From contig JAIVJS010000075.1 in the NCBI GenBank assembly GCA_020199905.1, forward strand, positions 4,521-68,520: 64,000 nucleotides of DNA, in the 5' to 3' direction. Made by a program: the position numbers and the translations under genes. Shown piece by piece: positions 17,136-54,839 of the stretch. Positions within the stretch are counted from its first letter, which is position 1; every line of letters starts with the position of its first letter. This stretch comes from Acidobacteriota bacterium (GTDB lineage Bacteria; Acidobacteriota; Thermoanaerobaculia; UBA5066; Gp7-AA6). The notes under the pieces were generated by a model. It did not search any database, was not told the origin of the DNA, and saw only the letters and a program-made list of their open reading frames with translations.

Positions 17136-20100
17136 GTGCGCAAGACGCTGTGGATTTCGATGCCGCTTTTGGTATGGGCCGCTCTGGCGCCGGCCTTCGC
17201 GAGCGCGGCGGACAGCGCCCCGCTCTCCAGGAACGCCCCGCTCTCCAAGGACGAGGAGCGCCGACGCTTCCATCCGCATCGGGTGGGGACAGACCCCGCC
17301 GTCCGCGCGAAGGCCGCCGCGCAGCGCGAATCGATGGAGAAGGCGTCGCTCTTCGGAGCGCTCAAGTTCCGAAACGTCGGGCCCGAAATCCAGGGAGGAC
17401 GGGTGGTGGATCTGGCCGCGCCCTCCAATCATCCCGACTCGCTGGTCGTCGCCTTCGCCTCGGGAGGGCTCTGGCGCACCGATAACCGCGGGGGCACCTG
17501 GACGGCGCTTTTCGACTCGCAACCCACGCTGACGATCGGCGCGTTCGCCCTTGCGGACGGAGACGCCCGCACGATCTACGTGGGCACGGGCGAAGCGAAC
17601 TCGAGCCGTACGTCCTACGCGGGAACCGGGATGTACAAGACGACGGACGCCGGCCGCTCGTGGCAGAGCCTGGGGCTCGCGGACACGCACCACATCGCGC
17701 GCATCGTGGTCGACCCGCGGAGTCCGGACACGGTGCTCGTGGCGGCGATGGGCCACCTCTACACGGACAACCCGGAGCGCGGGGTGTATCGGAGCGCCGA
17801 CGGCGGACGCACCTGGTCGCGGACGCTCTTCGTCGATGATCGGACGGGCGCGATCGACATCGTAGCGGACCCGCGAAACCCGGACGTGGTGTACGCGGCG
17901 ACGTGGGAGCGCGCGCGGACGGCGGCGAACTTTCTCGAGAGCGGGCCGGGGAGCGGCATCTGGAAGTCGGCCGACGGCGGAAAGACATGGAAGCGCCTTT
18001 CGGGATCGCTTCCGTCCGGCGCGACCCTCGGCCGCATCGGGCTCGCGATCGCCGCGTCGCGGCCCGGCACGGTCTACGCCGTGCTCGATAACCAGGCCTT
18101 GCGCCCCGACACGGAGCCTTTCGACGAGGAAGCGCCTCCGGGCGACCTGACGCCGCGCCGTCTGAAGGCGCTCACTCCGGAAGCCTTCTCGCGGCTGGAC
18201 GACGCGACGGTCTCGCGGTTTCTCCAGCGCAACGATTTCCCGAAGACCGTGAAAGCCGCGAGGCTCAAGAAGGACGTGGCCGCCGGCAAGGTCACCGTCG
18301 CGGACCTGGTGGCGTATCTCAAGGACAGCAACCGCGACCTCTTCGAGAACGAGGTCGTCGGGCTCGAGGTCTATCGCACCGATGATGGCGGCGCGAGCTG
18401 GAAGAAGACGCACGCGGGGCGGATCGAGAAAGTCTTCTACTCCTACGGCTACTACTTCGCGCGCATCGCCGCGGACCCTTCCAATCCCGACCACATCTAC
18501 ATAGGCGGGGTCCCGATGATCGCGTCGACCGACGGCGGAAAGACGTTCAAGGGGATCGACCAGCGCGGGGTCCACGGCGATCACCACGCAATCTTCATCG
18601 ACCCGAAGACCCCGTCGCGTGTCGTGATCGGGAATGACGGTGGCATCAACATGTCCGGCGACGGAGGCGAGACCTGGACGAAGCTGAACAACATCCCCGT
18701 CGGCCAGTTCACAACGCTCGCGGTGGACGACGCGGAGCCGTACAACATCGTGGGAGGTTTGCAGGACAACGGCGTCATGCGCGGGCCGTCGACGTACCGC
18801 CCCGGCAAGACGGATCCGCAGGCGTGGAAATCGATCTGGGGAGGCGACGGAAGCTGCGTCGTCATCGACCCGAAGGACAGCAACATCATCTACGCCGCCG
18901 GACAGTTCGGCGCCTCCGGGCGGATCAACCTGAAGACCGGCGAGCGGCAGCGGCTGCGCCCGCGGCCCGAGCTGTCGGCGGCGAAGAAGGAAAAGCCGCT
19001 CCGCTACAACTGGATCACGCCATTTCTGCTCTCTCCGCACTCCCGCGAAATCCTCTATTACGGAACCAACCGCCTCTATCGCTCCTTCGACCGGGGCGAC
19101 ACGTGGACGGCGATCTCGGAGGAGTTGACCTCGAACCGCGAGCAGGGAGACGTCCCGTTCGGGACCATCACTTCCATCGCGGAATCACCGAAGCGCTTCG
19201 GGGTCCTCTTCGTGGGGACGGACGAAGGCCGGGTCCGGGGCTCGCGCGACGGGGGCAACACGTGGGCGGATCTCTCGAAAGGCCTGGCGCGCGACAAGTG
19301 GGTGACGCGCGTCATCGCTTCCGCGTTCGACGAGGGGACCGTCTACGTCTCGCAGAACGGCTATCGCGACGACGACTTCAGCGCGTACCTCTTCCGCTCG
19401 ACCGATTTCGGGAGGACCTGGCAGTCTCTCTCGGCGGGGCTTCCCGCCGAGCCGATCAACACGGTCCGGGAGGATCCCAAGGCGAGGCACCTCCTCTACG
19501 TCGGGACCGACTCGGGCGTCTTCGCCTCGCTCGACCGCGGCGCGACGTGGACGGCGCTGGCGGGAGGACTGCCGCGGGTGGCCGTGCACGACGTCGCGGT
19601 GCAGCCTCGGGAGGGCGATCTCGTGGTCGCGACCCACGGACGCAGCGTCTATGTCGCCGAGGCCGGGCCGCTGCGCCGCATGAAAGACGGGCCGCCGGCC
19701 GACCCGCTCGTCGCCTTTCCGATCAAGTCGCTCAAGCTGTCCGCCAGGAAGGGCTACGGCGATCACCCGTATTTCACGTGGGGCCGCGAGGACCCGGCCG
19801 TCCGGATCGCGTGGTGGTCGAAGACCGGCCAGCCCGTCTCCCTCTCGATCCAGGACGAGAACGGGAGTCCCTGGAAGGAGCTCACCGGTCCGGCCGCGAC
19901 CGGCTTCAACGTGATCGAGTACGACCTCTCCGCGGACCCGAAGCTCGCCGACGCCGCGGAAGCGAAGGCCCGCGAAAAAGCGCTGGCGGCCGCGAAATCC
20001 GGAGACGCCGCGGCGCCCGCCGCTCCCCATCCGGCGGCGGTCGCCGCCGACGCCGACGACGACGCGGAGCCCGCGAAAGCCGACGACGAAAAGCCCGCTG

Positions 20101-20282
20101 CCGGCCCGAAAAAACCGCTCGATCCGGATCTCTACCGGCTCCTGGAGGACCCGCTCCGGGCGACCCGAAAGCGATACCTGCCGCCCGGAACGTACTCCGT
20201 CCAGATCCGCTCGGGAAGCGCCTCGCAGAAGACGACGCTGCGGATCCTGCCAGAGCCGGAAGGGCGCTTTAGCGAGGACTAG
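17136..20282 (+). CDS. Secreted sortilin/VPS10-like BNR (Asp-box) repeat protein, paralog of 335-3415
   Basis: 1048 aa. GTG start after AGGAGG. Signal peptide MRKTLWISMPLLVWAALAPAFASAA. Asp-boxes TTDAGRSW, SADGGRTW, SADGGKTW, TDDGGASW, STDGGKTF, SGDGGETW, SRDGGNTW, STDFGRTW. Collinear with the first paralog, including the shared motif YDLSADPKLADAAEAKAREKA. Confidence 0.8.
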   Translation: MRKTLWISMPLLVWAALAPAFASAADSAPLSRNAPLSKDEERRRFHPHRVGTDPAVRAKAAAQRESMEKASLFGALKFRNVGPEIQGGRVVDLAAPSNHPDSLVVAFASGGLWRTDNRGGTWTALFDSQPTLTIGAFALADGDARTIYVGTGEANSSRTSYAGTGMYKTTDAGRSWQSLGLADTHHIARIVVDPRSPDTVLVAAMGHLYTDNPERGVYRSADGGRTWSRTLFVDDRTGAIDIVADPRNPDVVYAATWERARTAANFLESGPGSGIWKSADGGKTWKRLSGSLPSGATLGRIGLAIAASRPGTVYAVLDNQALRPDTEPFDEEAPPGDLTPRRLKALTPEAFSRLDDATVSRFLQRNDFPKTVKAARLKKDVAAGKVTVADLVAYLKDSNRDLFENEVVGLEVYRTDDGGASWKKTHAGRIEKVFYSYGYYFARIAADPSNPDHIYIGGVPMIASTDGGKTFKGIDQRGVHGDHHAIFIDPKTPSRVVIGNDGGINMSGDGGETWTKLNNIPVGQFTTLAVDDAEPYNIVGGLQDNGVMRGPSTYRPGKTDPQAWKSIWGGDGSCVVIDPKDSNIIYAAGQFGASGRINLKTGERQRLRPRPELSAAKKEKPLRYNWITPFLLSPHSREILYYGTNRLYRSFDRGDTWTAISEELTSNREQGDVPFGTITSIAESPKRFGVLFVGTDEGRVRGSRDGGNTWADLSKGLARDKWVTRVIASAFDEGTVYVSQNGYRDDDFSAYLFRSTDFGRTWQSLSAGLPAEPINTVREDPKARHLLYVGTDSGVFASLDRGATWTALAGGLPRVAVHDVAVQPREGDLVVATHGRSVYVAEAGPLRRMKDGPPADPLVAFPIKSLKLSARKGYGDHPYFTWGREDPAVRIAWWSKTGQPVSLSIQDENGSPWKELTGPAATGFNVIEYDLSADPKLADAAEAKAREKALAAAKSGDAAAPAAPHPAAVAADADDDAEPAKADDEKPAAGPKKPLDPDLYRLLEDPLRATRKRYLPPGTYSVQIRSGSASQKTTLRILPEPEGRFSED

Positions 20283-20288
20283 GCGACG

Positions 20289-20360
20289 GTTGAGCTTTGA
20301 GCGTCAAACGTTGAGCGTCAAACGGAGGAGAACGAAGTCCCGAGGATAACTGAAAACTCA
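20289..20360. repeat. Heptamer-periodic intergenic element (TTGAGCG/TCAAACG units then AACTGAAAACTCA)
   Basis: GTTGAGCTTTGAGCGTCAAACGTTGAGCGTCAAACGGAGGAG...GATAACTGAAAACTCACG, immediately after the BNR paralog stop. Confidence 0.55.
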
Positions 20361-20672
20361 CGACCCTACGGCGCACTCCAGCGCGCGAGAAATCGCGCGT
20401 GCGACGAGTAGCGGATGACCTCGCGCCGGGGGCTCGGCGGGCCCAGCTGCTCCGCGAAGCCCTTGTTGGATAGCTCCGGAAGCCTTTCGAGGTCGGGAGG
20501 GTCGATCCGGATTCCCCGGGGGCCTCGTACGATCTTGCTCCTTCGTTCCTGCATGGGACCTTTCATTCTAGTCCTAAAACGGGCACGGCGTCCCGCGGCT
20601 TGAGACAGGAGGAAGCAAGAGTCGGGCCGCGGATCCAAGCGGCAAAGTTTTTGCTGTTCGCGGCAAAGGGAA

Positions 20673-22568
20673 ATGAAAGACGCTCGATCGCAACGCCTCG
20701 GAAAGAGTGCGGAACGTCGTCGGCGCCGGCCGCGGTTCTCCGCGCTCCTGTTCCTTTTTCCCGTCACCGCGCTCCTCGCGGCGGCGGCCTGCAAAGGTCC
20801 CGCGCCTCCTGGAGGCGCGGGCGTCCCGGCGGCCGGTCCGGCGTCCGGGTCGGCTGGATCCATCCCCTTCCCGGAGCCCGACGAGTCCTCGTGGATCCGT
20901 CCGGCGAAGGACTTTTCGAGCAGTCGCTACAGCACGCTCGACCAGATCAAGTCCGACAACGTCGCGAATTTGAAGCTCGCGTTCACGTTTTCGACCGGCA
21001 TCAACAAGGGGCACGAAGCGGCGCCCCTCGTGGTCAACGGCACGATGTACATCGTCACGCCCTACCCGAATTACCTCTACGCGCTGGATCTGACCTCGCC
21101 GGGCGCGCCCGCGAAGTGGACCTATAAGCCGAAGACCATCCCGTCGGCCCAGGGGGTGGCATGCTGCGACGTGGTCAACCGCGGCGCCGTCTACGGGAAG
21201 GGGCGCATCTACTACAACACCCTCGACGACCAGACGGTCGCCGTGGACGCCGCGACGGGGCAGGAGGTCTGGCGCACCCGGGTCGGGGACATCAACCACG
21301 GCGAGTCGATCACGATGGCGCCGCTCCTCGTCAAAGGCAAGGTCCTCGTCGGAAACAGCGGCGGCGAGTTCGGCGTGAGAGGCTGGTTGACGGCGCTCGA
21401 CGAAGACACGGGCAAGGTCGCATGGCGCGCCTGGAGCACCGGGCCCGACAAGGACGTCCTGATCGGCTCCCGGTTCAAGCCTTTTTACGCCTCCGACCGC
21501 GGCGCCGACCTCGGAGTCTCGAGCTGGCCCGGCGACATGTGGAAGATCGGCGGAGGGACGGTGTGGGGCTGGATTTCCTATGACCCGCAGCTGAACCTGA
21601 TCTATTACGGAACGTCGAATCCGGGTCCGTGGAACCCGGACCAGCGGCCGGGCGACAACAAGTGGACGGCGGCGATCTTCGCGCGCGACCCCGACGACGG
21701 CCAGGCGGTGTGGGCCTACCAGTGGAGCCCGCACGACCTCTTCGACTACGACGGGGTCAACGAAAACGTGCTGGTCGATCTTCCGATCGGAGGCCGGACC
21801 CGCAAGACTCTCCTGAGGGCCGACCGCGACGGCTTTCTGTACGTGCTCGACCGCGAGACCGGGGAGATCATCTCCGCCACGCCGTTCGCCTACACCACGA
21901 CGCGGACGGGCGTCGATTTGAAGAGCGGCCGCCCGATCGAAGTCGCCGAGAAGACCCCGCACGTCGGCACGACGACGCGCGGGATCTGCCCCGCCGCGCC
22001 CGGGGGGAAGGACTGGCAGCCGTCCGCCTTCTCTCCGCGAACGGGCCTCCTCTACATCCCCCACAACAACCTCTGCCAGGACGAAGAGGGCGTTCAGGCG
22101 AACTACATCGAAGGAACCCCGTACGTCGGAGCGAACGTGAAGATGTACGCGGGGCCGGGCGGGCACCGGGGCGAGTTCACCGCGTGGGACCCGATCGCCG
22201 CGCGGCCCGTCTGGAAGATCAAGGAGAAGTTCCCGGCGTGGAGTGGCGCCCTGGCGACGGCCGGCGACGTCGTCTTCTACGGGACGATGGAGGGCTGGTT
22301 CCAGGCAGTGGACGCGCGGTCGGGCAAGCTCCTGTGGCGATTCAAGTGCGGCTCGGGAATCATCGGCCAGCCGATCACGTATCGCGGGCCGGACGGCAAG
22401 CAGTACGTCGCGATCCTGTCCGGCGTCGGGGGGTGGGCGGGCGCTATCGTCGCGAACAACCTCGACCCGCGCGACGGAACCGCGGCGTTGGGATTCGTCA
22501 ACGCCATGGGCGATCTCCCGACGGCGACGACCGCCGGCGGGATGCTGTACGTCTTCGCCCTGCCATGA
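20673..22568 (+). CDS. xoxF: PQQ-dependent methanol/alcohol dehydrogenase, XoxF-type (lanthanide-dependent signature)
   Basis: 631 aa, 8-bladed PQQ propeller. Vicinal disulfide GVACCDVVNRG. Metal/PQQ-site region PHDLFDYDGVNE has Asp at the position that is Ala in Ca-MxaF (DYAG). This is the known lanthanide-coordinating Asp of XoxF/PedH enzymes. Also carries the W-rich docking motifs. N-terminal export signal with RRRRRPRF. Confidence 0.9.
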   Translation: MKDARSQRLGKSAERRRRRPRFSALLFLFPVTALLAAAACKGPAPPGGAGVPAAGPASGSAGSIPFPEPDESSWIRPAKDFSSSRYSTLDQIKSDNVANLKLAFTFSTGINKGHEAAPLVVNGTMYIVTPYPNYLYALDLTSPGAPAKWTYKPKTIPSAQGVACCDVVNRGAVYGKGRIYYNTLDDQTVAVDAATGQEVWRTRVGDINHGESITMAPLLVKGKVLVGNSGGEFGVRGWLTALDEDTGKVAWRAWSTGPDKDVLIGSRFKPFYASDRGADLGVSSWPGDMWKIGGGTVWGWISYDPQLNLIYYGTSNPGPWNPDQRPGDNKWTAAIFARDPDDGQAVWAYQWSPHDLFDYDGVNENVLVDLPIGGRTRKTLLRADRDGFLYVLDRETGEIISATPFAYTTTRTGVDLKSGRPIEVAEKTPHVGTTTRGICPAAPGGKDWQPSAFSPRTGLLYIPHNNLCQDEEGVQANYIEGTPYVGANVKMYAGPGGHRGEFTAWDPIAARPVWKIKEKFPAWSGALATAGDVVFYGTMEGWFQAVDARSGKLLWRFKCGSGIIGQPITYRGPDGKQYVAILSGVGGWAGAIVANNLDPRDGTAALGFVNAMGDLPTATTAGGMLYVFALP

Positions 22569-23455
22569 CGATCCGTCGCGTCACCCCTCTTCTCTTCGCG
22601 CTCCTCCTCGGAGCCATCGCCACGCCCGCGATCGGATTTGAGCTACGTGTCTGCGCCGACCCGAACAACCTGCCCTTCTCGAACGACCGGCTCCACGGGT
22701 TCGAGAACAGGATTGCGTCCGTGCTCGCCCGCGAGATGGGAACGACCGTCCGATACACGTGGTGGGCGCAGCGACGCGGGTTCGTGCGCAACACGCTGAA
22801 GGCGGGCTTGTGCGACGTCGTCCTCGGGGTCCCGGCGGGGCTCGAGTCGGTGCTGGCCACGCGCCCGTATTACCGGTCGACCTACGTCTGGGTGTCGCGG
22901 CGCTCGCGCGAGGCTCCCGTGACGTCCTTCGACGACCCCCGCCTCGCCCGGAAAAAGATCGGCGTCCAGCTCGTCGGCGACGATTATGCGAACACGCCCC
23001 CGGCGCACGCTCTCATGCGACGGGGCCTCATCGGCAACGTGGTCGGGTTCACGCTGTACGGCGACTACTCGAAGCCCAATCCCCCCGCCCGGATTCTCGA
23101 GGCGGTGGCGGCCGGCGAGGTGGACGTCGCGCTCGTCTGGGGGCCACTCGCGGGCTACTTCGCCAGCCGCAGCGGAGGCGCGCTCCGGATCGTACCGGCT
23201 GCGCCGCCGGCCGATCTCCCGGATTTCCCTTTCGCCTTCGACATCGCGATGGGAGTCCGGCGAGGCGACAAGGACTTCAAGACCCGGCTCGATCTCGCGC
23301 TCCTTCGCCGGCGCGCGGAAATCGACCGGATTCTCGATTCGTACGGGGTTCCGCGCGTCAGGACCGCGCCCGCGCCGCGCGCCGACGTGGCAGGGCGGGC
23401 GGCAGGCGCCGACGTGGCGGCGCGGGGGCTCGCGTCCGCGGAGGCCGGGCGATGA
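22566..23455 (+). CDS. xoxJ: MxaJ/XoxJ-like periplasmic solute-binding protein (quinoprotein dehydrogenase-associated SBP family 3)
   Basis: ATG overlaps the xoxF stop (ATGA). Signal peptide MTIRRVTPLLFALLLGAIATPA. LRVCADPNNLPFSN start is typical of MxaJ/XoxJ. ~296 aa. Confidence 0.75.
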
Positions 23456-23967
23456 GAAGCAAACGGGCAGGCCGGCAGCTTCTCGTTTGCGCTGCCCTGG
23501 CGGTCCTGCCGGTCGGGTGCGACAAGCTCTCGAACTCCCTGCACCAGCCGCCCTCCGCGACCGTGCGCACCGACGCGATCGCCGTGTCCGCGCTCGAGCC
23601 CGGCGCGCGGATGCCCGGGATCGTGCACAAGAACCCGCTCGAGGGAAATCCATTCGCCATCTCCGAGGGGCAGCGGCTCTACGACTGGTACAACTGCTCC
23701 GGCTGCCACTTCCGCGGCGGAGGCGGCATCGGTCCGCCCCTGATGGACGAGTTCTGGATCTACGGCGGCAATCCCGCGAACATCTATACGACGATCGTCG
23801 AGGGGCGCCCGAACGGCATGCCCGCTTTCCGGGGAAAGATCCCCGACTATCAGCTCTGGCAGATCGTCGCCTACGTCCAGAGCATGCGCGCCGACAAGCC
23901 GATCGCGTCTCCGCCGGGTCCGCGGGAGGACCACCTGCAGGCCTCGGAAGGCAAGGAGTCGCGGTGA
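23452..23967 (+). CDS. Mono-heme c-type cytochrome (candidate XoxG-like electron acceptor of XoxF)
   Basis: ATG overlaps the xoxJ stop (ATGA). Signal/lipoprotein-like N-terminus MRSKRAGRQLLVCAALAVLPVGC. Single CxxCH (CSGCH) and downstream Met (NGMPAF) as candidate sixth ligand. 171 aa. Confidence 0.7.
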   Translation: MRSKRAGRQLLVCAALAVLPVGCDKLSNSLHQPPSATVRTDAIAVSALEPGARMPGIVHKNPLEGNPFAISEGQRLYDWYNCSGCHFRGGGGIGPPLMDEFWIYGGNPANIYTTIVEGRPNGMPAFRGKIPDYQLWQIVAYVQSMRADKPIASPPGPREDHLQASEGKESR

Positions 23968-24965
23968 GCCGGCGGAGCGGCCTGCCGGCCGCGGCCGCGG
24001 CCCTCCTCTGCGCGGCTCTCTCCGGGTGCCGGGGAATCCAGTCGTCTCTCGACCCCGCCGGCCGCGAGGCCGCGAAGATTTCCGGGCTCTGGTGGCTCTT
24101 CTTCTACGTCTGCACGGCCGTGTTCGTCCTCGTGCTCGCCTTTCTCTTCTACGGGGTCTTCCGGCGGCGTTCGGAAGACGCGCTTGGGGCGCGGGAGCGC
24201 GGCAAGACCTACGTCGCAATCGGCGCGGGCGCGACCGCGGCGATCCTCCTCCTGTTCCTGGTCGTCAGCGTTTCCGCGGGGCGGGAGATCGCGGAGCCCG
24301 CGGGACCCGACGCGCTCAAGGTGCAGGTGATCGGACACCAATGGTGGTGGGAGGTCCGGTATCCAGCGTCCCCCGCGAACCGGACGGTCGTCACCGCGAA
24401 CGAGATCCACGTGCCGGTTGGACGGCCCGTTTTCCTGGAGCTTCTCTCGGGCGACGTGATCCACAGCTTCTGGGCGCCGAACCTCCACGGGAAAAAGGAC
24501 CTCATCCCCGGGCGGATCAACAGCCACGCGTTCACCGCGAAGAAGGCCGGCGTGTTCCGAGGGCAGTGCGCCGAGTTCTGCGGCCTCCAGCATGCCCACA
24601 TGGCCTTCACGATTTTCGCGGAGACGCCGGAGCGCTACTCGGCGTGGTACGAGAAGCAGCTCGCGCCCGCCGCGGAGCCTTCGACCCCGTCGCAGGAGAG
24701 GGGACGGCAGGTCTTCGTCTCCAATTCCTGCGTCTTCTGCCATGCGATCCAGGGCACGCCCGCGTTCGGGCAGGTCGCGCCTGACCTCACGCACGTCGGC
24801 GGGCGCGGGACGCTCGCCGCCGGCAGCGTCGCGAACAATCCGGGAAACCTGGCCGGCTGGATCGCCGACCCGCAGAGCATCAAGCCCGGCAACCACATGC
24901 CGCCGATGCTGATGGCACCCGAAGACCTGCTCGCGGTGACCGACTACCTGGAGAGCTTGAAGTGA
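23964..24965 (+). CDS. ctaC: Cytochrome c oxidase subunit II with fused C-terminal cytochrome c domain (caa3-type)
   Basis: GTG overlaps the upstream stop (GTGA). Two TM helices. CuA site HSFWAPNLHGKKD...CAEFCGLQHAHM. C-terminal CVFCH heme c motif and MPPM. Confidence 0.9.
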   Translation: MSRRSGLPAAAAALLCAALSGCRGIQSSLDPAGREAAKISGLWWLFFYVCTAVFVLVLAFLFYGVFRRRSEDALGARERGKTYVAIGAGATAAILLLFLVVSVSAGREIAEPAGPDALKVQVIGHQWWWEVRYPASPANRTVVTANEIHVPVGRPVFLELLSGDVIHSFWAPNLHGKKDLIPGRINSHAFTAKKAGVFRGQCAEFCGLQHAHMAFTIFAETPERYSAWYEKQLAPAAEPSTPSQERGRQVFVSNSCVFCHAIQGTPAFGQVAPDLTHVGGRGTLAAGSVANNPGNLAGWIADPQSIKPGNHMPPMLMAPEDLLAVTDYLESLK

Positions 24966-26926
24966 AGACGTCCCGGGAGCCCGTCCGGAAGCCGCCCGCG
25001 GCCCCCGAGCCCGCGCCGCTGCCCGCCGCCCTTCCCGAAGCCGAGCTTCCGGCTCACGAGCGCGAAGAGCTGCGCCGCGCCTTCGAGACCCAGCGCGGTT
25101 TCTTCGGCTCCCTGAAGTCCGTCGACCACAAGGTGATCGGGAAGCGCTACGTGATCACCGCGCTCGTCTTCTTTGTCCTGGGCGGCATCGAAGCGATGAC
25201 GATGCGGCTGCAGCTCGCAAAGCCCGAAAACAGCCTTCTGGGCCCGGACCTGTACAACCAGGTCTTCACGATGCACGGCACGACGATGATGTTTCTGTTT
25301 GCCGTGCCGGTGATGGAAGGGCTCGCCGTCTACTTCGTCCCGCTCATGGTGGGCACCAGGAACGTCGCGTTCCCGAAGCTGAACGCCTTCGGGTACTGGA
25401 TCTATGTCCTCGGCGGCGCGTTCGTCTACGGCGGGTTCTTCTTAAACCGCGGCAACGACACGGGCTGGTTCTCCTACGTCCCGCTCTCCGGCCCGCAGTA
25501 CGCGCCGTCTCATCGCGTCGACATCTGGGCGAACATGATCACCTTCACGGAGGTGTCCGCGCTCGCGGTGGCGATCGAGATCATCGTCACGGCGTTCAAA
25601 CAGCGGGCGCCCGGCATGTCGCTGAATCGCATCCCGCTCTTCGTCTGGTCGGTCATAACGACGAATTTCATGGTCATCTTCGCCATGCCGGCCGTCATGC
25701 TCGCGAGCGGGTACCTCGCTCTCGACCGCCTCGTCGGTACCCACTTCTTCAACCCCGCCGAGGGCGGCGACCCGCTCCTGTATCAGCACCTCTTCTGGTT
25801 CTTCGGCCATCCCGAGGTCTACATCATTTTCATCCCCGCGCTCGGGATGGTCTCGACGATCCTGGCCGCCTCGACGAAGCGCCCGATCTTCGGCTACACC
25901 GCGCTCGTGCTCTCGGTGGTGGCGACGGCGTTCCTGGGCTTCGGCCTGTGGGTTCACCACATGTTCGCGACCGGGCTGCCGCAGCTCGGCGAGAGCTTCT
26001 TCACGGTGGCCAGCATGATGATCGCGATACCGAGCGGGGTGCAGATCTTCTGCTGGATACGATCGCTCTGGGGAAGCCGGCCGCGCATGACGACCCCGTT
26101 CCTGTTCGTGCTCGGCTTCTTCTTCATCTTCATCGCGGGAGGGATGACAGGGGTGATGCTCGCCTCCGTTCCCTTCAACCTCCAGGTGCACGACACGTTT
26201 TTCGTGGTGGCGCACTTCCACTACGTGCTGATCGGCGGCGCGGTCTTCCCGCTCTTTGGCGCGCTCACGTTCTGGTTTCCGAAGCTCACCGGCCGGCTGC
26301 TTTCGGAGACTCTCGGCCGCTGGACGTTTGCGGTGATGTTCGTCGGATTCAACCTAACGTTCGGCCCGATGCACTGGCTTGGCTTCCGCGGGATGCCGCG
26401 ACGCGTCTACACGTACCTGCCCGAGATGGGGTGGGGACCCGCTAATCTCGCGGCGACCATCGGGGCGGGAATGCTCGGAGTCGGCGTGCTCCTCTTCCTG
26501 ATCAACGCGGCCCGGAGCCTCCGGAGCGGCGAGGCGGCCGGCAACAATCCGTGGGGCGCGAGCACGCTCGAATGGGCGACGAGCTCGCCTCCGCCGCCCT
26601 ACAATTTCGAGCGGATCCTGGTTGTCTCGAACCGCGACCCGCTCTGGAAGCCGGAGGAGATGGCCGTTGTCACCGGGATGCGGACGGACCGCCGCGAGGT
26701 TTTGACGACCCGGCCGCTCGATGCGGAGCCGGACCACCGCGCCGTGCTCGTCGGCCCCTCGATCTGGCCGCTCTTCCTCGCGTTCGCCCTGGCGGTCGGC
26801 CTCGTAGGCTCGGTCTTCACCCCCTGGGCAATCCTCCTCAGCGGGTTCCTGTTCTTAGTCGCGATGATCGGGTGGTACTGGCCCAAGGGAGAGCCCTCCG
26901 GCCACAACGCGAGGACGGCGTCATGA
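24962..26926 (+). CDS. ctaD: Cytochrome c oxidase subunit I (heme-copper oxidase catalytic subunit)
   Basis: 654 aa. GTG overlaps the ctaC stop. 12+ TM helices. Canonical WFFGHPEVY with CuB His and Tyr. HHMF. Heme a ligands. Confidence 0.95.
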   Translation: MKTSREPVRKPPAAPEPAPLPAALPEAELPAHEREELRRAFETQRGFFGSLKSVDHKVIGKRYVITALVFFVLGGIEAMTMRLQLAKPENSLLGPDLYNQVFTMHGTTMMFLFAVPVMEGLAVYFVPLMVGTRNVAFPKLNAFGYWIYVLGGAFVYGGFFLNRGNDTGWFSYVPLSGPQYAPSHRVDIWANMITFTEVSALAVAIEIIVTAFKQRAPGMSLNRIPLFVWSVITTNFMVIFAMPAVMLASGYLALDRLVGTHFFNPAEGGDPLLYQHLFWFFGHPEVYIIFIPALGMVSTILAASTKRPIFGYTALVLSVVATAFLGFGLWVHHMFATGLPQLGESFFTVASMMIAIPSGVQIFCWIRSLWGSRPRMTTPFLFVLGFFFIFIAGGMTGVMLASVPFNLQVHDTFFVVAHFHYVLIGGAVFPLFGALTFWFPKLTGRLLSETLGRWTFAVMFVGFNLTFGPMHWLGFRGMPRRVYTYLPEMGWGPANLAATIGAGMLGVGVLLFLINAARSLRSGEAAGNNPWGASTLEWATSSPPPPYNFERILVVSNRDPLWKPEEMAVVTGMRTDRREVLTTRPLDAEPDHRAVLVGPSIWPLFLAFALAVGLVGSVFTPWAILLSGFLFLVAMIGWYWPKGEPSGHNARTAS

Positions 26927-27540
26927 GCTCGCGCCGAACGGTGGACGTCTCGCGCTTGCCCGATATCACGCTCGACTCGGGCGCGCTCTTCTGGTGGGCG
27001 ACGGCCGGACTCATCGCGATCGAGGCGATGAGCTTCGCGATCATCATCGCCACCTTCATCTACCTGCGAATGACGGTGACGGACTGGCCACCCCCGACGC
27101 TCCCGCCGCCGGACCTCAGGTGGGGAATCGCGGGCCTGGTGGTCCTCGTCATCAGCTGCGTGCCCATCCGCATGGCGGAGAAGATCGCCGGACGGGGCCG
27201 GCCGGAAGAGGACAGGCGCCGGATCGCCGCTCTCATCCGAGTGTTCCTCCTCATCGCGGCGGTCGCCGTCGCGATCCGCCTCCTCGAATTTCCGGGCACG
27301 CACTGCAAGTGGAACAACAGCGCGTACGGCTCGGTCATCTGGACCACGCTCGGCATCCACCTGCTCGAAGCTCTCGCGGGATTCGCCGAGTTCGCCGTCG
27401 TGGCAGCGGTCCTCGTCGGCAGCCACGCCGAAGAGAAACACCTCCTAGACGTGCGCGCCTGCGCGCTTTTCTGGTACTTCATCGTCGCCGTCTGGATCCC
27501 GCTCTTCGGAATGATCTACGTCTTTCCGAGGCTCTCGTGA
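26923..27540 (+). CDS. ctaE: Cytochrome c oxidase subunit III
   Basis: ATG overlaps the ctaD stop (ATGA). ~205 aa, 5 TM. ALFWYFIVAVWIPLFGMIYVF resembles the conserved subunit III C-terminal helix. Confidence 0.8.
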   Translation: MSSRRTVDVSRLPDITLDSGALFWWATAGLIAIEAMSFAIIIATFIYLRMTVTDWPPPTLPPPDLRWGIAGLVVLVISCVPIRMAEKIAGRGRPEEDRRRIAALIRVFLLIAAVAVAIRLLEFPGTHCKWNNSAYGSVIWTTLGIHLLEALAGFAEFAVVAAVLVGSHAEEKHLLDVRACALFWYFIVAVWIPLFGMIYVFPRLS

Positions 27541-27920
27541 CCGAGCGCGCGATCGCCGGCGGCGAAGCTCCTCCCGAAGCGTCGGCGGACCGGAGCCTAT
27601 GGTTCGGCATTGTCGCGCCGCCGCTCGCGTGGGCGGCCAACGAGCTCGCCGGGCTCCTCCTTCCCGACTGGGTCTGCAAGAGCGGCCACCGGTGGGTTCT
27701 CCACGCGATCACCGCGGCCGCTCTCGCGATCGCCGTTCTGGCCGGAGCGATGGCGAGCCGGTCGGCCCGGCCTTCCGAGGAGGACGCCGGCGACCCGGAG
27801 GGCCCGATCGCGAAGCGCCGGCGTTTCATGAGCCAGCTGGCCGTCATGAGCGCGCTCTTCTTCTCGCTCGTGATTGTCGCGGGAGCGGTGCCGGGCGCGA
27901 TCCACCGACCCTGCGACTGA
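27537..27920 (+). CDS. Small 3-TM membrane protein in subunit IV position of the caa3 operon (CtaF-like)
   Basis: GTG overlaps the ctaE stop (GTGA). 127 aa, three hydrophobic helices. Positional inference only. Confidence 0.45.
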   Translation: MTERAIAGGEAPPEASADRSLWFGIVAPPLAWAANELAGLLLPDWVCKSGHRWVLHAITAAALAIAVLAGAMASRSARPSEEDAGDPEGPIAKRRRFMSQLAVMSALFFSLVIVAGAVPGAIHRPCD

Positions 27921-27925
27921 CCCCC

Positions 27926-28970
27926 ATGCGCTCATCGGGCCTCGCGGACCTTCTCGCTGCCGGAGGGTGGACGTTCGATCCGGCCGTCGTCGCGCTTCTC
28001 GCGGCCTCGGGGTTCCTTTACGCGCGCGGGCTGCGTCGCCTCTGGGGCCGGGCGGGCGCGGGGGCGGGCATCTCGGTGCGTCAGGCGGCGGCGTTCGTCG
28101 GCGGCTGGGCTGCGCTCGCGGTCGCGCTCGTCTCGCCTCTGCACGCGGCCGGCGAAATCCTGTTCTCCGCCCACATGGTGCAGCACGAGCTGCTTATGCT
28201 GGTCGCCGCGCCCTTGTGCGTGATGGGACGCCCGCTGTCCGTCTTTCTCTGGGCCTTTCCCGCCGGCGCGCGCGAGGCGATCGGGGAAGCGTCGAGGGCC
28301 CGGGGGATCTCCGCCGCCTGGACGGCCGTCACGCGCCCGCTGCCCGCCTTTCTCCTCCAGAGCCTCACTCTCTGGATCTGGCATCTGCCCGCGCTCTACC
28401 AGGCGTCCCTCCGATCGGATTTCGCGCACGCCCTGCAGCACGGCAGCTTCTTCGCCGCGTCCACGGTCTTCTGGTGGGCGCTCCTTCAGGGACGGTTCGG
28501 CCGGCAGGGCTACGGAGCCGCCGCAATCGCCGTTTTCGCGACAACCCTCGAAGGCGGGGTGCTCGGCGCGCTGATCACGTTTGCCCGCTCGCTCTGGTAC
28601 CCGATCTACGAAGCGCGCACCGCGGCATGGGGGCTCTCTCCGCTCGAAGACCAGCAGCTCGCCGGGATCCTGATGTGGGTGCCGGCCGGCCTTCTCCTGG
28701 TGGGGTTCGGCCTCGCACTTTTCGCCGCCTGGCTCGGCGAGGCGGAACGGCGGGAAGGGCGTCCCGGGAGCGGATGCGAACGTCGGACCGCCGCTCGACA
28801 ACATCGCCTCCCGCGTCTACCTCGCCGGAAACCTGACGAACGAGCCCGCGCACATGATCGCGTGGATCCGCGATCCCCAGCATCTGCACGCGCCGACCGC
28901 CATGCCGAATTCCGGAGTGACGGCGCGGGACGCTAGGGACATCGCTGCGTACCTCTACACGCTCAAATGA
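27926..28970 (+). CDS. ctaG: Caa3-type cytochrome oxidase assembly factor CtaG (CopD-like), with a frameshift into a C-terminal cytochrome-c-like tail lacking CxxCH
   Basis: N-terminus MRSSGLADLLAAGGWTFDPAVVALLAASGFLYARG plus 6-7 TM helices, MVQHELLM and WHLPALYQ motifs typical of CtaG. The frame-2 ORF degenerates into low-complexity sequence after ~28760. The frame-0 continuation, with no start codon, encodes GPPLDNIASRVYLAGNLTNEPAHMIAWIRDPQHLHAPTAMPNSGVTARDARDIAAYLYTLK. This is clearly homologous to the C-terminus of ctaC (GNLAGWIADPQSIKPGNHMPP...AVTDYLESLK). Its stop at 28968-70 overlaps the next ATG. Confidence 0.55.
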
Positions 28971-29371
28971 CGGGGGCTCCCCGGCGTCCCGCGCGAGCGG
29001 CGGCCGCCCTCCTGGCTCTTGCCGCCGCCTGCCGGGCTCCGGCGGACCGGGTCCGCGATATCCGGATCTTCGCCGCTTCCTGGGCGGAGACCGTCCGCAC
29101 CACCGCCGCCGCCCGCGCCGCGGGACAGGTCCCCCGGGTGTTCGCCCGCGACACCTTCCGCGCAGCGGTGGAAGAGCTCGAAGACGCGAGGAAGAAGCTG
29201 GCGAAGCTCGCGAAAAAAAGCCCGGAAGCGGCGGAGGCCTCCCGCGCGGCGGGAAGGGCGGCCGCCGCCGTCCGATCGATCGCGGCCGGGTCCGACTCCT
29301 CGGACGTCTCGGCCGCCTCTGCCGCGCTCGCCGCTGACGCCGCTCTCCTGCGCGGAGGAGCGCGCCCGTGA
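28967..29371 (+). CDS. Hypothetical exported alpha-helical protein (possible lipoprotein)
   Basis: ATG overlaps the upstream stop. Signal MTGAPRRPARAAAALLALAAAC. Ala-rich helical 134 aa. Stop overlaps the Nramp GTG start (GTGA). Confidence 0.4.
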   Translation: MTGAPRRPARAAAALLALAAACRAPADRVRDIRIFAASWAETVRTTAAARAAGQVPRVFARDTFRAAVEELEDARKKLAKLAKKSPEAAEASRAAGRAAAAVRSIAAGSDSSDVSAASAALAADAALLRGGARP

Positions 29372-30591
29372 AAGGAGCGTTGAAGTGGCTCCTCGGCATC
29401 GTCACGAGCATCTGCGGCTTCATCGAGGTCGGCTCGATCTCGACGTCGGCGCAGGCGGGATCCGAGTTCGGCTTCCGGCTTCTCTGGGCGGTCGCGATCG
29501 CGACCGTCTGCCTCGTCTTCCTGGTCGAAATGTCCGGAAGGCTGGCGCTCGTCAGCGGCCACACGCTCGTGTCGGCGGTCCGCGAGCGCTTTGGGTTCCG
29601 GTTCCACGCGGTGCCGCTCTCGGCGGAGATCCTCCTCGACGTTCTCGTTCTCTCTGCGGAGATCGGCGGCGCGTGCGTGGCGCTCCAGCTCCTGACGGGT
29701 GTCTCCTTCCGGTGGTTTGCCCTGCCGGTCGGCCTCGCCGTCTGGGCGCTGCTCTGGTACGGCACGTTTTCGGTCATCGAGAACGGGGTCTCCGCGCTCG
29801 GGCTCGTGACGCTCGCGTTCGTGGTCGCGGCGTGGAAGGGGCATCCGGATCCGGCGGCGCTCCTGGCCGGCCTCGTGCCCTCCGCGCCGCCGGACTCCGG
29901 AAGCCTCCCCCGTTACGGGTTTCTCGCCGTCGGCATCCTCGGCGCCACGATCAGCCCGTACCTGCTCAATTTCTACTCGTCGGGAGCCGTCGAGGAGAAG
30001 TGGAGCGAGAAGGACGTGATGCCGAATCGGCTCGTCGCGGCGTTCGGTATGTCTTTCGGCAGCGTGGTGTCCGCGGGCGTCCTCGTGGTGGCCGCCCTCG
30101 TCCTCGCCCCGCGGGGCATCCACGTCGACCGGTTCGAGCAGGCGGCGCTGATGCTCCTTCCGGCGTTCCGATCGTGGGGCGTTCCTCTCTTCGCCGCGTG
30201 CCTCTTCATCGGCTGCTTCGGCGCGGCGCTCGAGATCGCGTTGAACCTCGCCTACGCGATGGCGCAGGCGTTCGGATGGAACTGGGGCGAGGACCAGCGC
30301 CCCGCGGAAGACGCGCGGTTCTGCGTCGTCTACACCGCTGCGGTTCTCGCCGGCTCCGTCATCATGACGGCGGGCCTTTCTCCCTTGAAGCTCACGCTCT
30401 TTTCGATGGCGCTGACGGTCGTCGTGCTCCCGCTGATCGTCATGCCGTTTCTCGTGCTCTTGAACGACCCGCATTACGTAAAGACTCATCGCAACGGCTG
30501 GATCGGCAATTTCGTCGTGACGTTCGTCCTCCTCCTCGGCTGCCTTCTGGCGGTCGTCGTGATTCCGCTGGAGGTGATCGGTGGCGGATGA
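29368..30591 (+). CDS. NRAMP-family divalent metal cation transporter (MntH-like)
   Basis: 407 aa, 11 TM helices. N-terminal LKWLLGIVTSICGFIEVGSISTSAQAGSEFGFRLLWAV and mid-protein GATISPYLLNFYSSG architecture typical of Nramp/MntH. Family call by overall similarity, no strict DPGN motif. Confidence 0.65.
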   Translation: MKGALKWLLGIVTSICGFIEVGSISTSAQAGSEFGFRLLWAVAIATVCLVFLVEMSGRLALVSGHTLVSAVRERFGFRFHAVPLSAEILLDVLVLSAEIGGACVALQLLTGVSFRWFALPVGLAVWALLWYGTFSVIENGVSALGLVTLAFVVAAWKGHPDPAALLAGLVPSAPPDSGSLPRYGFLAVGILGATISPYLLNFYSSGAVEEKWSEKDVMPNRLVAAFGMSFGSVVSAGVLVVAALVLAPRGIHVDRFEQAALMLLPAFRSWGVPLFAACLFIGCFGAALEIALNLAYAMAQAFGWNWGEDQRPAEDARFCVVYTAAVLAGSVIMTAGLSPLKLTLFSMALTVVVLPLIVMPFLVLLNDPHYVKTHRNGWIGNFVVTFVLLLGCLLAVVVIPLEVIGGG

Positions 30592-30955
30592 GGTGCATCT
30601 CGTCCGCGACATTCTCGACAAGCAGCTCGTCGACCGCGATCGCCGGCTCATGGGCAAAGCGGACGGCATCGTCCTGCGGATGCGCGGCAGTGGTCCTCCG
30701 GAGGTGGTCGCCATCGAAGCCGGGCCGGGCGTCCTGGCGGACCGTCTGCATCCGGGGCTCGGGCGGCGGCTCTGCGCGGCGCTCGAACGTCTCGGGAAAG
30801 ACATCGGGCAGCCTCTGCGAATCCCCTTCGCGAAGATCCTTCATCGGGGCCTGGATCTCCAGATCGACACGGACGCGCGGCGGACGAGCGCTTACGCCGC
30901 GGAACGGTGGCTCAAAGAGCGCCTGGTCCGCCGGTTCCCCGGCTCGGGAGAATGA
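30581..30955 (+). CDS. PRC-barrel domain protein
   Basis: GTG start overlapping the Nramp end by 11 nt. 124 aa, LVRDILDKQLVDRDRRLMGKADGIVLRM matches the PRC-barrel core. Confidence 0.45.
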   Translation: MADEVHLVRDILDKQLVDRDRRLMGKADGIVLRMRGSGPPEVVAIEAGPGVLADRLHPGLGRRLCAALERLGKDIGQPLRIPFAKILHRGLDLQIDTDARRTSAYAAERWLKERLVRRFPGSGE

Positions 30956-30959
30956 GACG

Positions 30960-31277
30960 ATGACCGCCGCCCGCGAAATCCGCCTGGAGCGGCTCGTCGG
31001 CCGCGAAGTGAGAGACCAGACGGGACGGGCGGTCGGGCGGCTCGAGGAAGTGCGGGCGCGCAAGAAGGGGAACGAATGGGTGGTGACCGACTGCCACATC
31101 GGCACGGCGGCGCTCGTGGAACGGCTGGCCGCGCACATCCTGAGATTCGGGACCCACGGATACCGCGCCTCGTGGGACCAGATCGACTGGTCGGACCCGG
31201 AAAAGCTGCGCCTGGCCTGTCCCCTCGAGGACCTGCGGCGGCTGACGAGCCGGGCCGCGCGCTCGCGCCGGAAATGA
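30960..31277 (+). CDS. PRC-barrel domain protein
   Basis: 105 aa. LVGREVRDQTGRAVGRLEEVRARKKGNEWVVTDCHIG PRC-barrel core. Stop overlaps the next gene ATG (ATGA). Confidence 0.5.
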   Translation: MTAAREIRLERLVGREVRDQTGRAVGRLEEVRARKKGNEWVVTDCHIGTAALVERLAAHILRFGTHGYRASWDQIDWSDPEKLRLACPLEDLRRLTSRAARSRRK

Positions 31278-32281
31278 CGCGCCGGAGCTTCTTCCATCGG
31301 CGAAGCCTCATGGTGGGCGCCGTTCTGACGGGTGTCTGCGTCGTCTCCCTCGCGGCAGCGCCGTCCGGCGCGCCGGCCGGTTTCTTTCGCGTGTACGTGA
31401 CGAACGAGCGCTCCGGCGACGTGACCGTGATCGACCCGCGAACGCGCGCGGCGATCCGCAACATCGCAGTCGGGGGCCGCCCGCGCGGGATCGCCGCCTC
31501 ACCCGACGGACGGCGCCTCTACGTGGCGATCGCCGCCAGGAATGGGGCTCCCGCCGGCATCGCGGTCATCGATGCCGCTTCCGGCCGGGTCTCGGGGAGG
31601 CTTCCATCGGGCCCCGATCCCGAGAACGTCGCCGTCACTCCGGACGGGCGGACACTGTGGATCTCCAACGAGGACGCGTCACACGCGTCGGCGGTGGATG
31701 TCAGGATCCGCCGCATTCTCGCGACCGTTCCGACGGGAGAGGAGCCGGAAGGGGTGGCCGTCTCCGCGGATGGGCGATGGGTCGCCGTCACCTCCGAGAG
31801 CGCGAGCGCCATCACGGTGATCGACGCGCGCTCGCGCCGGGCGATTCGGAAGATCCGGACGGACGCGCGGCCTCGGGCCGTGCGCTTCTCTCCCGACGGG
31901 AAGAGGGTCTACGCAACCGCGGAGATCGGGGGAAGCGTCTCCTGGATCGACACGGCCACCTGGACCGTCGGCGCGCGGCTCGTGCTTCCCGGACCGGTCA
32001 AGGCGGTCGGCGTGGCGGTCCCCCCCGACGGCCGGCGCCTCTACGTGACCACCAGCCACGCCAACGGAGTCGCCGTCGTCGATACCGAGTCCTTCTCCGT
32101 GGCGGCCACCATCCCGGTGGGCGGGCGGCCGTGGGGCATCGCGCTCTCGCCCGACGGCCGCACTCTGTTCACCGCGAACGGGACCTCGGGAGACGTCTCG
32201 GTGGTCGATCTCGCCTCCGGCCGCGCGGTGGCGGCCGTTCCCGCGGGCGACGGGCCCTGGGGCGTCGCGGTCGCGCGTTGA
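31274..32281 (+). CDS. Exported YVTN-family beta-propeller repeat protein (Tat signal)
   Basis: Twin-arginine signal MTRRSFFHRRSLMVGAV. Seven ~40-aa repeats of the type SPDGRRLYVA...VIDAASGRV (ASPDGRRLY, VTPDGRTLW, VSADGRWVAV, FSPDGKRVYA, VPPDGRRLYV, LSPDGRTLF). Confidence 0.75.
   Translation: MTRRSFFHRRSLMVGAVLTGVCVVSLAAAPSGAPAGFFRVYVTNERSGDVTVIDPRTRAAIRNIAVGGRPRGIAASPDGRRLYVAIAARNGAPAGIAVIDAASGRVSGRLPSGPDPENVAVTPDGRTLWISNEDASHASAVDVRIRRILATVPTGEEPEGVAVSADGRWVAVTSESASAITVIDARSRRAIRKIRTDARPRAVRFSPDGKRVYATAEIGGSVSWIDTATWTVGARLVLPGPVKAVGVAVPPDGRRLYVTTSHANGVAVVDTESFSVAATIPVGGRPWGIALSPDGRTLFTANGTSGDVSVVDLASGRAVAAVPAGDGPWGVAVAR

Positions 32282-54760: not shown

Positions 54761-54839
<79 letters not shown>

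Follow-up and report, generated by a model that had tools for sequence, protein, structure and literature searches.

In a 2014 mini-review, Keltjens et al. reportedly defined the types XoxF1 to XoxF5 of the XoxF dehydrogenases, and an earlier mention of XoxF3 systems is said to be found there. Voutsinos et al. 2024 describe XoxF3 systems in Acidobacteria and Gemmatimonadetes, in which the gene is co-localised with those for CoxI/II/III, CtaG, cytochrome c, XoxG, XoxJ, small hypothetical proteins and NRAMP; the enzyme carries an extra Asp, and XoxF3 is reported there to outnumber every other XoxF type in metagenomes of soil and weathered rock, with 340 of 411 sequences (PMC10875860). Methylocaldum and Methylocella are also reported to carry xoxF3, Methylocaldum in several copies, and the XoxF3 of M. 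trichosporium OB3b is induced by cerium (log2 fold change 7.66; PMC12482762). Here we analyse a locus of this kind in a stretch of 64,000 nucleotides from an Acidobacteriota bacterium of the class Thermoanaerobaculia (assembly GCA_020199905.1, contig JAIVJS010000075.1, positions 4,521 to 68,520), referred to below as the window, with a xoxF gene for a dehydrogenase dependent on pyrroloquinoline quinone (PQQ) at its centre of interest.

Much about this locus is already known: the lanthanide signature of the gene itself was to be expected and has been annotated, the XoxF3 clade has been described and the cox/ctaG/Nramp cluster has been published. The one under-reported feature of the gene is a lipoprotein-type signal, which a routine SignalP run would reveal. 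This conserved signal probably tethers XoxF3 to a membrane beside its own cytochrome c and oxidase. The reading that we favour, at a rough probability of 0.6 and on sequence evidence, is an XoxF3 enzyme that would be lipidated on Cys40, tethered, and feeding the cytochrome c and caa3 oxidase of its operon.

Predicted signal peptide and tether of the dehydrogenase

The gene and the two N-terminal segments that bear on this reading are as follows.

20673 to 22568, plus strand: xoxF, XoxF3-type PQQ methanol/ethanol-family dehydrogenase, 631 amino acids (TIGR03075, match to 4MAE)
20673 to 20792, plus strand: predicted lipoprotein signal peptide, with n-region at residues 1-21, h-region at residues 22-35 and lipobox A36-A-A-A-C40
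20793 to 20891, plus strand: flexible tether, residues 41-73 (K41-S73), KGPAPPGGAGVPAAGPASGSAGSIPFPEPDESS, called from composition and model

The N-terminus reads MKDARSQRLGKSAERRRRRPRFSALLFLFPVTALLAAAAC40KG, with the Cys40 codon at 20790-20792. A basic stretch, R15-R21, is followed by the uncharged F22-L35 and then by A-A-A-A-C40, with Ala at position -1, and a model from AlphaFold2 (AF2) has a helix at residues 28-39. Checked by hand, A-A-A-A-C40 satisfies the residue pattern of PROSITE PS51257. The ATG at 20673 is the sole in-frame ATG, GTG or TTG between the upstream stop and the hydrophobic segment, so the long basic n-region is not a start-codon artefact. A Shine-Dalgarno-like AAGGGA stands just 5' of this ATG, and the gene has a GC content at third codon positions (GC3) of 0.89 and a codon-position GC pattern typical of a real gene.

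Conservation of the signal was followed in 80 loci from species-representative genomes, whose 87 orthologue copies make up a set of 88 with the window protein. In alignment A1 (68 sequences) conservation of Cys40 is 90% or higher, and 70 of the 88 genome copies have a Cys of the signal peptidase II (SPII) type, preceded by a hydrophobic stretch and a small residue. Only Gly (33), Ala (32) and Ser (4) are found at position -1 in 69 SPII-type copies, position -4 of the lipobox is mainly Leu, and position +2 is mostly Ser or Arg in the orthologues and Lys in the window protein. The SPII-type copies take in all classifiable Thermoanaerobaculia, nearly all Gemmatimonadota, and Blastocatellia.

The 33 residues that follow the Cys are 79% Pro, Gly, Ala or Ser and lack secondary structure in the AF2 model, where their predicted local distance difference test (pLDDT) score is about 57-73; homology to 4MAE, the best solved relative, starts at residue 69. 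The lipobox-bearing orthologues differ little in the distance from the Cys to a conserved Trp (median 38 residues, interquartile range 35-39). Plain signals without the Cys are found in orthologues from Methylocaldum, Methylococcaceae, Mesorhizobium, Sphingomonas, Acidobacteriaceae and Bryobacteraceae, and these orthologues, of the signal peptidase I type, have a shorter lead-in (median 23.5 residues from the end of the h-region). On a neighbour-joining (NJ) tree, whose internal branches are poorly resolved, the plain-signal orthologues are scattered over at least four places among lipobox-bearing lineages, and the type of signal therefore follows the host and not the gene tree.

Cytochrome c and oxidase genes of the operon

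Directly after xoxF, on the same strand, lie xoxJ and the genes whose products would carry electrons from the enzyme to oxygen.

22565 to 23455, plus strand: xoxJ-like periplasmic binding protein (TIGR03871, 308 bits against a cutoff of 212)
23452 to 23967, plus strand: monohaem class I cytochrome c with a lipobox-like LPVG-C23-DK (Pfam Cytochrome_CBB3 and Cytochrom_C)
23964 to 24965, plus strand: coxB, caa3-type subunit II with a fused C-terminal cytochrome c domain and an N-terminal LSGC (Pfam COX2 and Cytochrom_C)
24962 to 26926, plus strand: coxA, subunit I (COX1, 504 bits)
26923 to 27540, plus strand: coxC, subunit III (COX3 match)

Overlaps of 4 bp join every neighbouring pair in this run (xoxF/xoxJ, xoxJ/cytochrome c, cytochrome c/coxB, coxB/coxA and coxA/coxC). 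The operon has no gene for the MxaI small subunit; xoxJ overlaps the xoxF stop directly. CoxB aligns over its full length, the fused cytochrome c domain included, with the caa3 subunit II 2YEV_B at 178 bits.

The same order is kept widely. Counting only related loci with enough downstream sequence, xoxF is followed by xoxJ in 63 of 71, by cytochrome c in 67 of 68, by coxB in 61 of 62, by coxA in 54 of 56, by coxC in 53 of 55 and by ctaG in 47 of 52. The operon cytochrome c, which we presume to be the electron acceptor of XoxF, is most like the haem domains of CcoP (65 bits). It is itself of the lipobox type in 67 of 70 loci, those of Proteobacteria included, and a linker of about 45 residues follows.

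A charged motif, C-[E/K/Q]-R-E-[E/Q]-R-x-F, is typical of the first cytochrome c of the cluster, right after the lipobox Cys, and spans Acidobacteriota, Gemmatimonadota and Proteobacteria; the window copy (C-D-K-L-S-N) departs from it.

Active site and place in the XoxF family

The residues that define the metal site and the cysteine pair were located in the DNA and by alignment with 4MAE, the XoxF of M. fumariolicum SolV.

21162 to 21167, plus strand: vicinal Cys164-Cys165, TGC-TGC within GVACCDVV, read from the DNA
21366 to 21368, plus strand: Glu232, metal ligand, equivalent to Glu172 of 4MAE, invariant in the alignment
21618 to 21620, plus strand: Asn316, metal ligand, equivalent to Asn256 of 4MAE, invariant in the alignment
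21744 to 21752, plus strand: D358, catalytic base and metal ligand, and D360, lanthanide-specific ligand, equivalent by alignment to Asp299 and Asp301 of 4MAE

The initial annotation of this DNA had proposed, from a DYD motif and adjacent cysteines in a PQQ dehydrogenase, an enzyme of the XoxF type with a lanthanide-type Asp and not of the MxaF type, and this proposal is supported. Both motifs are found in the DNA and in its translation: GAC-TAC-GAC at 21744-21752 encodes D358-Y359-D360 within WSPHDLFDYDGVNE, in the longer context PHDLFDYDGVNE, and the cysteines stand at 21162-21167. At the D360 column all 88 clade members have Asp, as have the four solved XoxF references, whereas 4TQO, the MxaF of Methylococcus capsulatus Bath, has Ala and reads DYA where the window protein reads DYD. 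C164, C165, E232, N316, D358 and D360 are invariant in all 88 copies, so these active-site features are not due to chance; the cysteine pair is also present in all five solved references. E115, R170, T214, S229, R385, D447, W523 and W588 match PQQ-contact residues of 4MAE, each PQQ or metal residue that matches 4MAE is kept in at least 87 of the 88 clade members, and the full 4MAE ligand set is intact, with none lost. As the metal ligands, the cysteine pair and the PQQ-binding residues are all in place, use of PQQ and a light lanthanide is expected, and we infer that the window protein is an XoxF-type methanol dehydrogenase with a lanthanide-type metal site that would hold a lanthanide.

Family and fold agree with this. 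The protein scores 652.9 bits against TIGR03075 of NCBIfam (cutoff 480.05), over profile positions 17-530 of 530. By sequence its best solved relative is 4MAE (685 bits), followed by 6OC5, the XoxF of M. extorquens (583 bits), the XoxF 6DAM (562 bits), the XoxF1-type 7O6Z (552 bits), 4TQO and other MxaF enzymes (550-468 bits), the PedH 6ZCW (355 bits) and the ExaA 1FLG (321 bits). The AF2 model, built with 68 sequences, has a mean pLDDT of 82.9 and a predicted TM-score (pTM) of 0.86 and contains an eight-bladed beta-propeller; the best fold match by Foldseek is again 4MAE, with a TM-score of 0.94 and a root-mean-square deviation of 2.0 Å over 568 columns at 54% identity.

One NCBI protein (P0001), from a metagenome-assembled genome of Thermoanaerobaculia (Acidobacteriota), is 100% identical to the window protein and is annotated as 'methanol/ethanol family PQQ-dependent dehydrogenase [Thermoanaerobaculia bacterium]'. 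It is followed by 119 protein matches of 68-84% identity that belong to Thermoanaerobaculia, to other Acidobacteriota, to Gemmatimonadales and to Methylocaldum; many of them bear the Joint Genome Institute (JGI) label 'lanthanide-dependent methanol dehydrogenase'. Within the clade, identity to the window protein is 68-86% in the 88-copy alignment, against 54% to 4MAE (XoxF2), 49% to both XoxF5 references, 47% to the XoxF1-type 7O6Z and 46-47% to MxaF. The NJ tree took as references five solved structures, with sequences from the search alignments and no accession-level XoxF3 or XoxF4 among them. The window clade is monophyletic in 50 of 50 bootstraps and, equally often, sister to 4MAE and 7O6Z together and apart from XoxF5 and MxaF, which places the protein outside the Ca-dependent MxaF clade. 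Because the gene order matches that of published XoxF3 systems and relatives occur in genera reported to carry xoxF3, we file the gene as XoxF3 and, on this sequence comparison, as an ordinary member of an already described group.

Methylocaldum, Methylocella and Mesorhizobium have homologues of 63-70% identity. Members of the XoxF3 clade that are 63-69% identical to the window protein also lie on megaplasmids or other large plasmids of cultured Mesorhizobium ciceri, Methylocella tundrae, Sinorhizobium and Azospirillum (records including NZ_CP139088.1, our locus L081, NZ_CP015065.1 and NC_009622.1). Plasmid p1 of Methylocella tundrae carries xoxF with xoxJ, cytochrome c, ctaG and coxBAC, the cox genes being inverted relative to xoxF. 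Methylocella tundrae, like Mesorhizobium, has the cassette in its signal peptidase I version.

Two tandem xoxF copies were seen in Longimicrobium and its relatives (L043, L045, L046, L051, L053, L057, L064, L066, L068 and L076). Both copies are of the lipobox type wherever both 5' ends are present, they fall in separate subclades, and they differ consistently after the Cys, with S/G/A-R/G-G/E in the first copy and M/I/V/T-D/E-K/H/S in the second.

Genes downstream of the oxidase and upstream of xoxF

Beyond coxC the cluster continues with the following genes.

27537 to 27920, plus strand: small membrane protein of about 120 amino acids with three predicted helices, between coxC and ctaG, from the translation
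27923 to 28736, plus strand: ctaG, caa3 assembly factor (Pfam Caa3_CtaG, 192 bits)
29380 to 30591, plus strand: Nramp-family transporter, NRMT-like (Pfam Nramp, 203 bits)
31274 to 32281, plus strand: PQQ-dependent-catabolism-associated beta-propeller protein (TIGR03866, 288.7 bits against a cutoff of 287.3)
32278 to 34527, plus strand: TonB-dependent receptor, overlapping the beta-propeller gene by 4 bp (Pfam Plug and TonB barrel)

The small membrane protein is kept at the same place in 34 loci and gave no family match; the hypothetical protein of 110-130 residues that the XoxF3 article reports for these clusters matches it (PMC10875860). Its frame differs from that of the open reading frame (ORF) 27599-28936, which we rejected as a single CtaG of 445 residues: the first 108 codons are Arg-rich and non-coding-like, and the small membrane protein occupies that place in the other frame. 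The ctaG start is probably the Met at 27923, and the 3' end is uncertain, as the high-GC3 frame switches near 28737.

A second small cytochrome c, with a Cys-bearing signal peptide and a CxxCH haem motif, follows ctaG in 19 of 20 related loci examined (for example L001 7745-9022, L003 11465-11890 and L007 18468-18884). At the corresponding place in the window (28737-28970, plus strand) this gene is open over about its last 78 codons only, and CxxCH is absent from every frame. Where it meets the end of ctaG, the second cytochrome gene seems to have lost its 5' part or to be frameshifted, and what remains of it could be a pseudogene or an assembly error.

The Nramp gene adjoins the cluster also in L001, L009, L028, L030 and L032, and the best solved relative of its product is the NRMT-type 7QIA, at 117 bits compared with about 64 bits for MntH. 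Its first metal-site motif is E-V-G-S (canonically D-P-G-N) and its second S-P-Y (canonically M-P-H); the soft Met ligand is thus missing, which would favour a hard cation, whether Mg2+ or a lanthanide. The TIGR03866 beta-propeller gene lies within 10 kb of xoxF in 42 of the 80 loci, and a TonB receptor is near xoxF in at least 15. We rejected an assignment of the window receptor as PqqU: the solved proteins closest to it, YncD/PqqU, match it weakly (63 bits), and the PqqU model of NCBIfam gives 66 against a cutoff of 1200.

Upstream, a gap of 390 bp separates xoxF from a BNR/sortilin-like gene. A 13-mer, TTGAGCGTCAAAC, occurs twice in tandem in this gap (20297-20309 and 20311-20323, plus strand), and a partial third copy, GGTTGAGC, stands at 20288-20295, just past the stop of the upstream gene. 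The window encodes two large secreted Sortilin/BNR-repeat proteins, one of 1026 residues at 335-3415 and one of 1048 residues at 17136-20282, both on the plus strand. The latter, directly upstream of xoxF, has no counterpart in related loci (the copy at 335-3415 was not searched), and these proteins are probably outside the conserved xoxF cluster. Scans of 20000-31500 found no sigma-70-like promoter and terminator-like sites no commoner than in shuffled sequence; an Rfam scan of the whole window gave a single tRNA at 54764-54837 and nothing near the xoxF operon.

Discussion

Compared with the published XoxF3 systems, as far as the available part of that article goes, the window locus shares the extra Asp, the same phyla and a gene complement of xoxJ, cytochrome c, CoxI/II/III, CtaG, 110-130-residue proteins, NRAMP and TonB receptor; the lipobox and tether described here are new to it, as signal peptides and lipoproteins are mentioned there zero times, and Thermoanaerobaculia, the class of the window host, is not named in that part (PMC10875860). 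More broadly, we found no mention of a lipidated XoxF, or of a lipoprotein signal on XoxF3 or on the cytochromes of the cluster, in the partially searchable literature. The SolV XoxF (an XoxF2; 4MAE, 6FKW) has the identical Glu, Asn, Asp and Asp ligands, Cys-Cys pair and PQQ contacts. It belongs, however, to a different clade, sister to that of the window protein and not containing it, and has no counterpart of the Cys and tether; it is a soluble periplasmic protein. MxaF (4TQO, 1W6S) shares the eight-bladed fold, the Cys-Cys pair, the catalytic Asp and the Glu and Asn ligands, and differs in its DYA motif and its separate clade, whereas the window xoxF is followed by no small-subunit gene. 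The closest parallels to the tether are among electron carriers. Cytochrome cy of Rhodobacter and the lipoprotein cytochromes c of Bacillus are membrane-tethered and feed terminal oxidases, each a redox carrier held by a flexible linker next to an oxidase; in the window system the primary dehydrogenase also appears to be tethered.

The mechanism that we propose starts with export of XoxF by Sec, after which the protein would be lipid-modified on Cys40 and cleaved by signal peptidase II. As sequence and conservation suggest, a flexible linker of about 33 residues would then join the propeller to a membrane; in the periplasm the enzyme, judged by homology, would use bound PQQ and a light lanthanide to oxidise methanol or another small alcohol like it. 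The operon cytochrome c, encoded two genes downstream and likewise predicted to be lipid-anchored, would take up the electrons and hand them on through the haem c domain of CoxB, in the co-transcribed caa3-type oxidase, to CuA, haem a/a3 and O2; this path is suggested by gene order, the 4-bp gene overlaps and conserved synteny. More speculatively, the products of the Nramp, beta-propeller and TonB-receptor genes may supply metal or cofactor. A short, membrane-held electron path seems the most economical reading of the cluster.

A wider proposal, to which we give somewhat less than even odds, is that XoxF3 in Acidobacteriota and Gemmatimonadota, on a tether of about 38 residues, would be lipid-anchored instead of free in the periplasm and would belong to a self-contained, membrane-held respiratory alcohol:O2 cassette that moves between phyla and brings its own import. 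Its members would be this XoxF3, one or two c-type cytochromes that are lipid-anchored as well and a caa3 oxidase of its own, together with a candidate hard-cation NRMT-like Nramp and a TonB receptor, and in Proteobacteria it would be carried on plasmids.

Several points weigh against a tethered enzyme wired to its own oxidase, and some of them favour the plainest alternative: signal peptidase I would cut the signal of the same XoxF3-type enzyme, for example after A-A-A, and leave the enzyme free and soluble in the periplasm, unlipidated on Cys40. To our knowledge, every XoxF or MxaF enzyme characterised so far is soluble and periplasmic, and plain signals are indeed found in the proteobacterial and the Acidobacteriaceae and Bryobacteraceae orthologues. 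AAA-C could also be read as an AxA site of signal peptidase I, and Cys40 lies five residues past the limit of 15-35 that PROSITE sets for the position of a lipoprotein Cys, because the n-region is 21 residues long. Even so, the ISGC, LAGC, PAC and LVGC of orthologues are lipoboxes that do not fit AxA, 69 of 69 sequences have Gly, Ala or Ser at position -1, the Cys is retained though the adjoining signal and tether sequences diverge freely, and it is lost exactly in the orthologues that lack the long tether. We regard the soluble enzyme as unlikely. The sorting of the two lipoproteins is a further difficulty for the tethered chain. In E. coli, Asp at +2 retains a lipoprotein in the inner membrane; by this rule, which may not be that of the host, the Lys of XoxF would direct it to the outer membrane and the Asp of the cytochrome would keep that protein in the inner membrane, and these opposite predictions complicate a simple chain. 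The operon cytochrome c, moreover, is only weakly like cytochrome cL/MoxG (34.5 bits against an NCBIfam cutoff of 147.8, and about 30 in PDB matches). The initial annotation had proposed a signal of the twin-arginine translocation (Tat)/lipobox type that would imply tethering, unusual for XoxF. The lipobox half is borne out by the Cys in 70 of the 88 copies, and tethering is indeed unusual beside the characterised soluble enzymes, although a predicted tether is the rule for this clade in Acidobacteriota and Gemmatimonadota. The Tat half fails. Five Arg stand in a row in the long, strongly basic n-region, but they run into P-R-F and match neither the loose pattern (RR-x-hydrophobic-hydrophobic) nor the strict twin-arginine pattern; of 100 full-length homologues 14 have the loose motif, and the strict one is absent from all of them. 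PQQ dehydrogenases cross the membrane by Sec and take up PQQ and metal once in the periplasm, and export of this one as a folded protein through Tat is scarcely credible.

The chemistry is open to alternatives as well, since metal specificity and substrate rest on homology at 54% identity and, according to the XoxF3 article, no member of the group has been biochemically characterised (PMC10875860). With the same lanthanide-type site, the substrate could be ethanol, other small alcohols, aldehydes or formaldehyde in place of methanol, which would make the cluster a general alcohol:O2 unit. No genes for C1 assimilation or formaldehyde oxidation were seen among the annotated genes of the window, and a TIGR03866 beta-propeller is encoded nearby; against this, the nearest solved enzymes are all methanol dehydrogenases (685-468 bits), with PedH and ExaA well behind, and XoxJ, a partner in methanol systems, is encoded. 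A substrate other than methanol thus seems improbable to us. That the protein is, despite its Asp, Ca-dependent or a cofactor-less ('empty') quinoprotein we consider very improbable. No PQQ-biosynthesis genes were found in the 64-kb window, which also counts against our proposal, and there is a secondary NCBIfam match to TIGR04528, acido-empty-quinoprotein group A. We rejected that family: its cutoff is 650 and the match stops at 334.2 bits, whereas the TIGR03075 score clears its threshold comfortably. The protein also keeps all the PQQ-binding and metal-binding residues, and the clade stands apart from MxaF in all bootstraps.

If XoxF3 enzymes of this kind are indeed tethered and wired to their own oxidase, purification and expression should remove or replace the lipobox, and the enzyme should be searched for in membrane fractions. 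The cassette would be a defined unit for genetics in cultured Methylocella tundrae, Mesorhizobium ciceri and Sinorhizobium; the plasmid-borne XoxF3 clade of cultured bacteria means that systems in which to test it exist. Methanol oxidation in phyla that are not classical methylotrophs would then more probably be respiratory than assimilatory.

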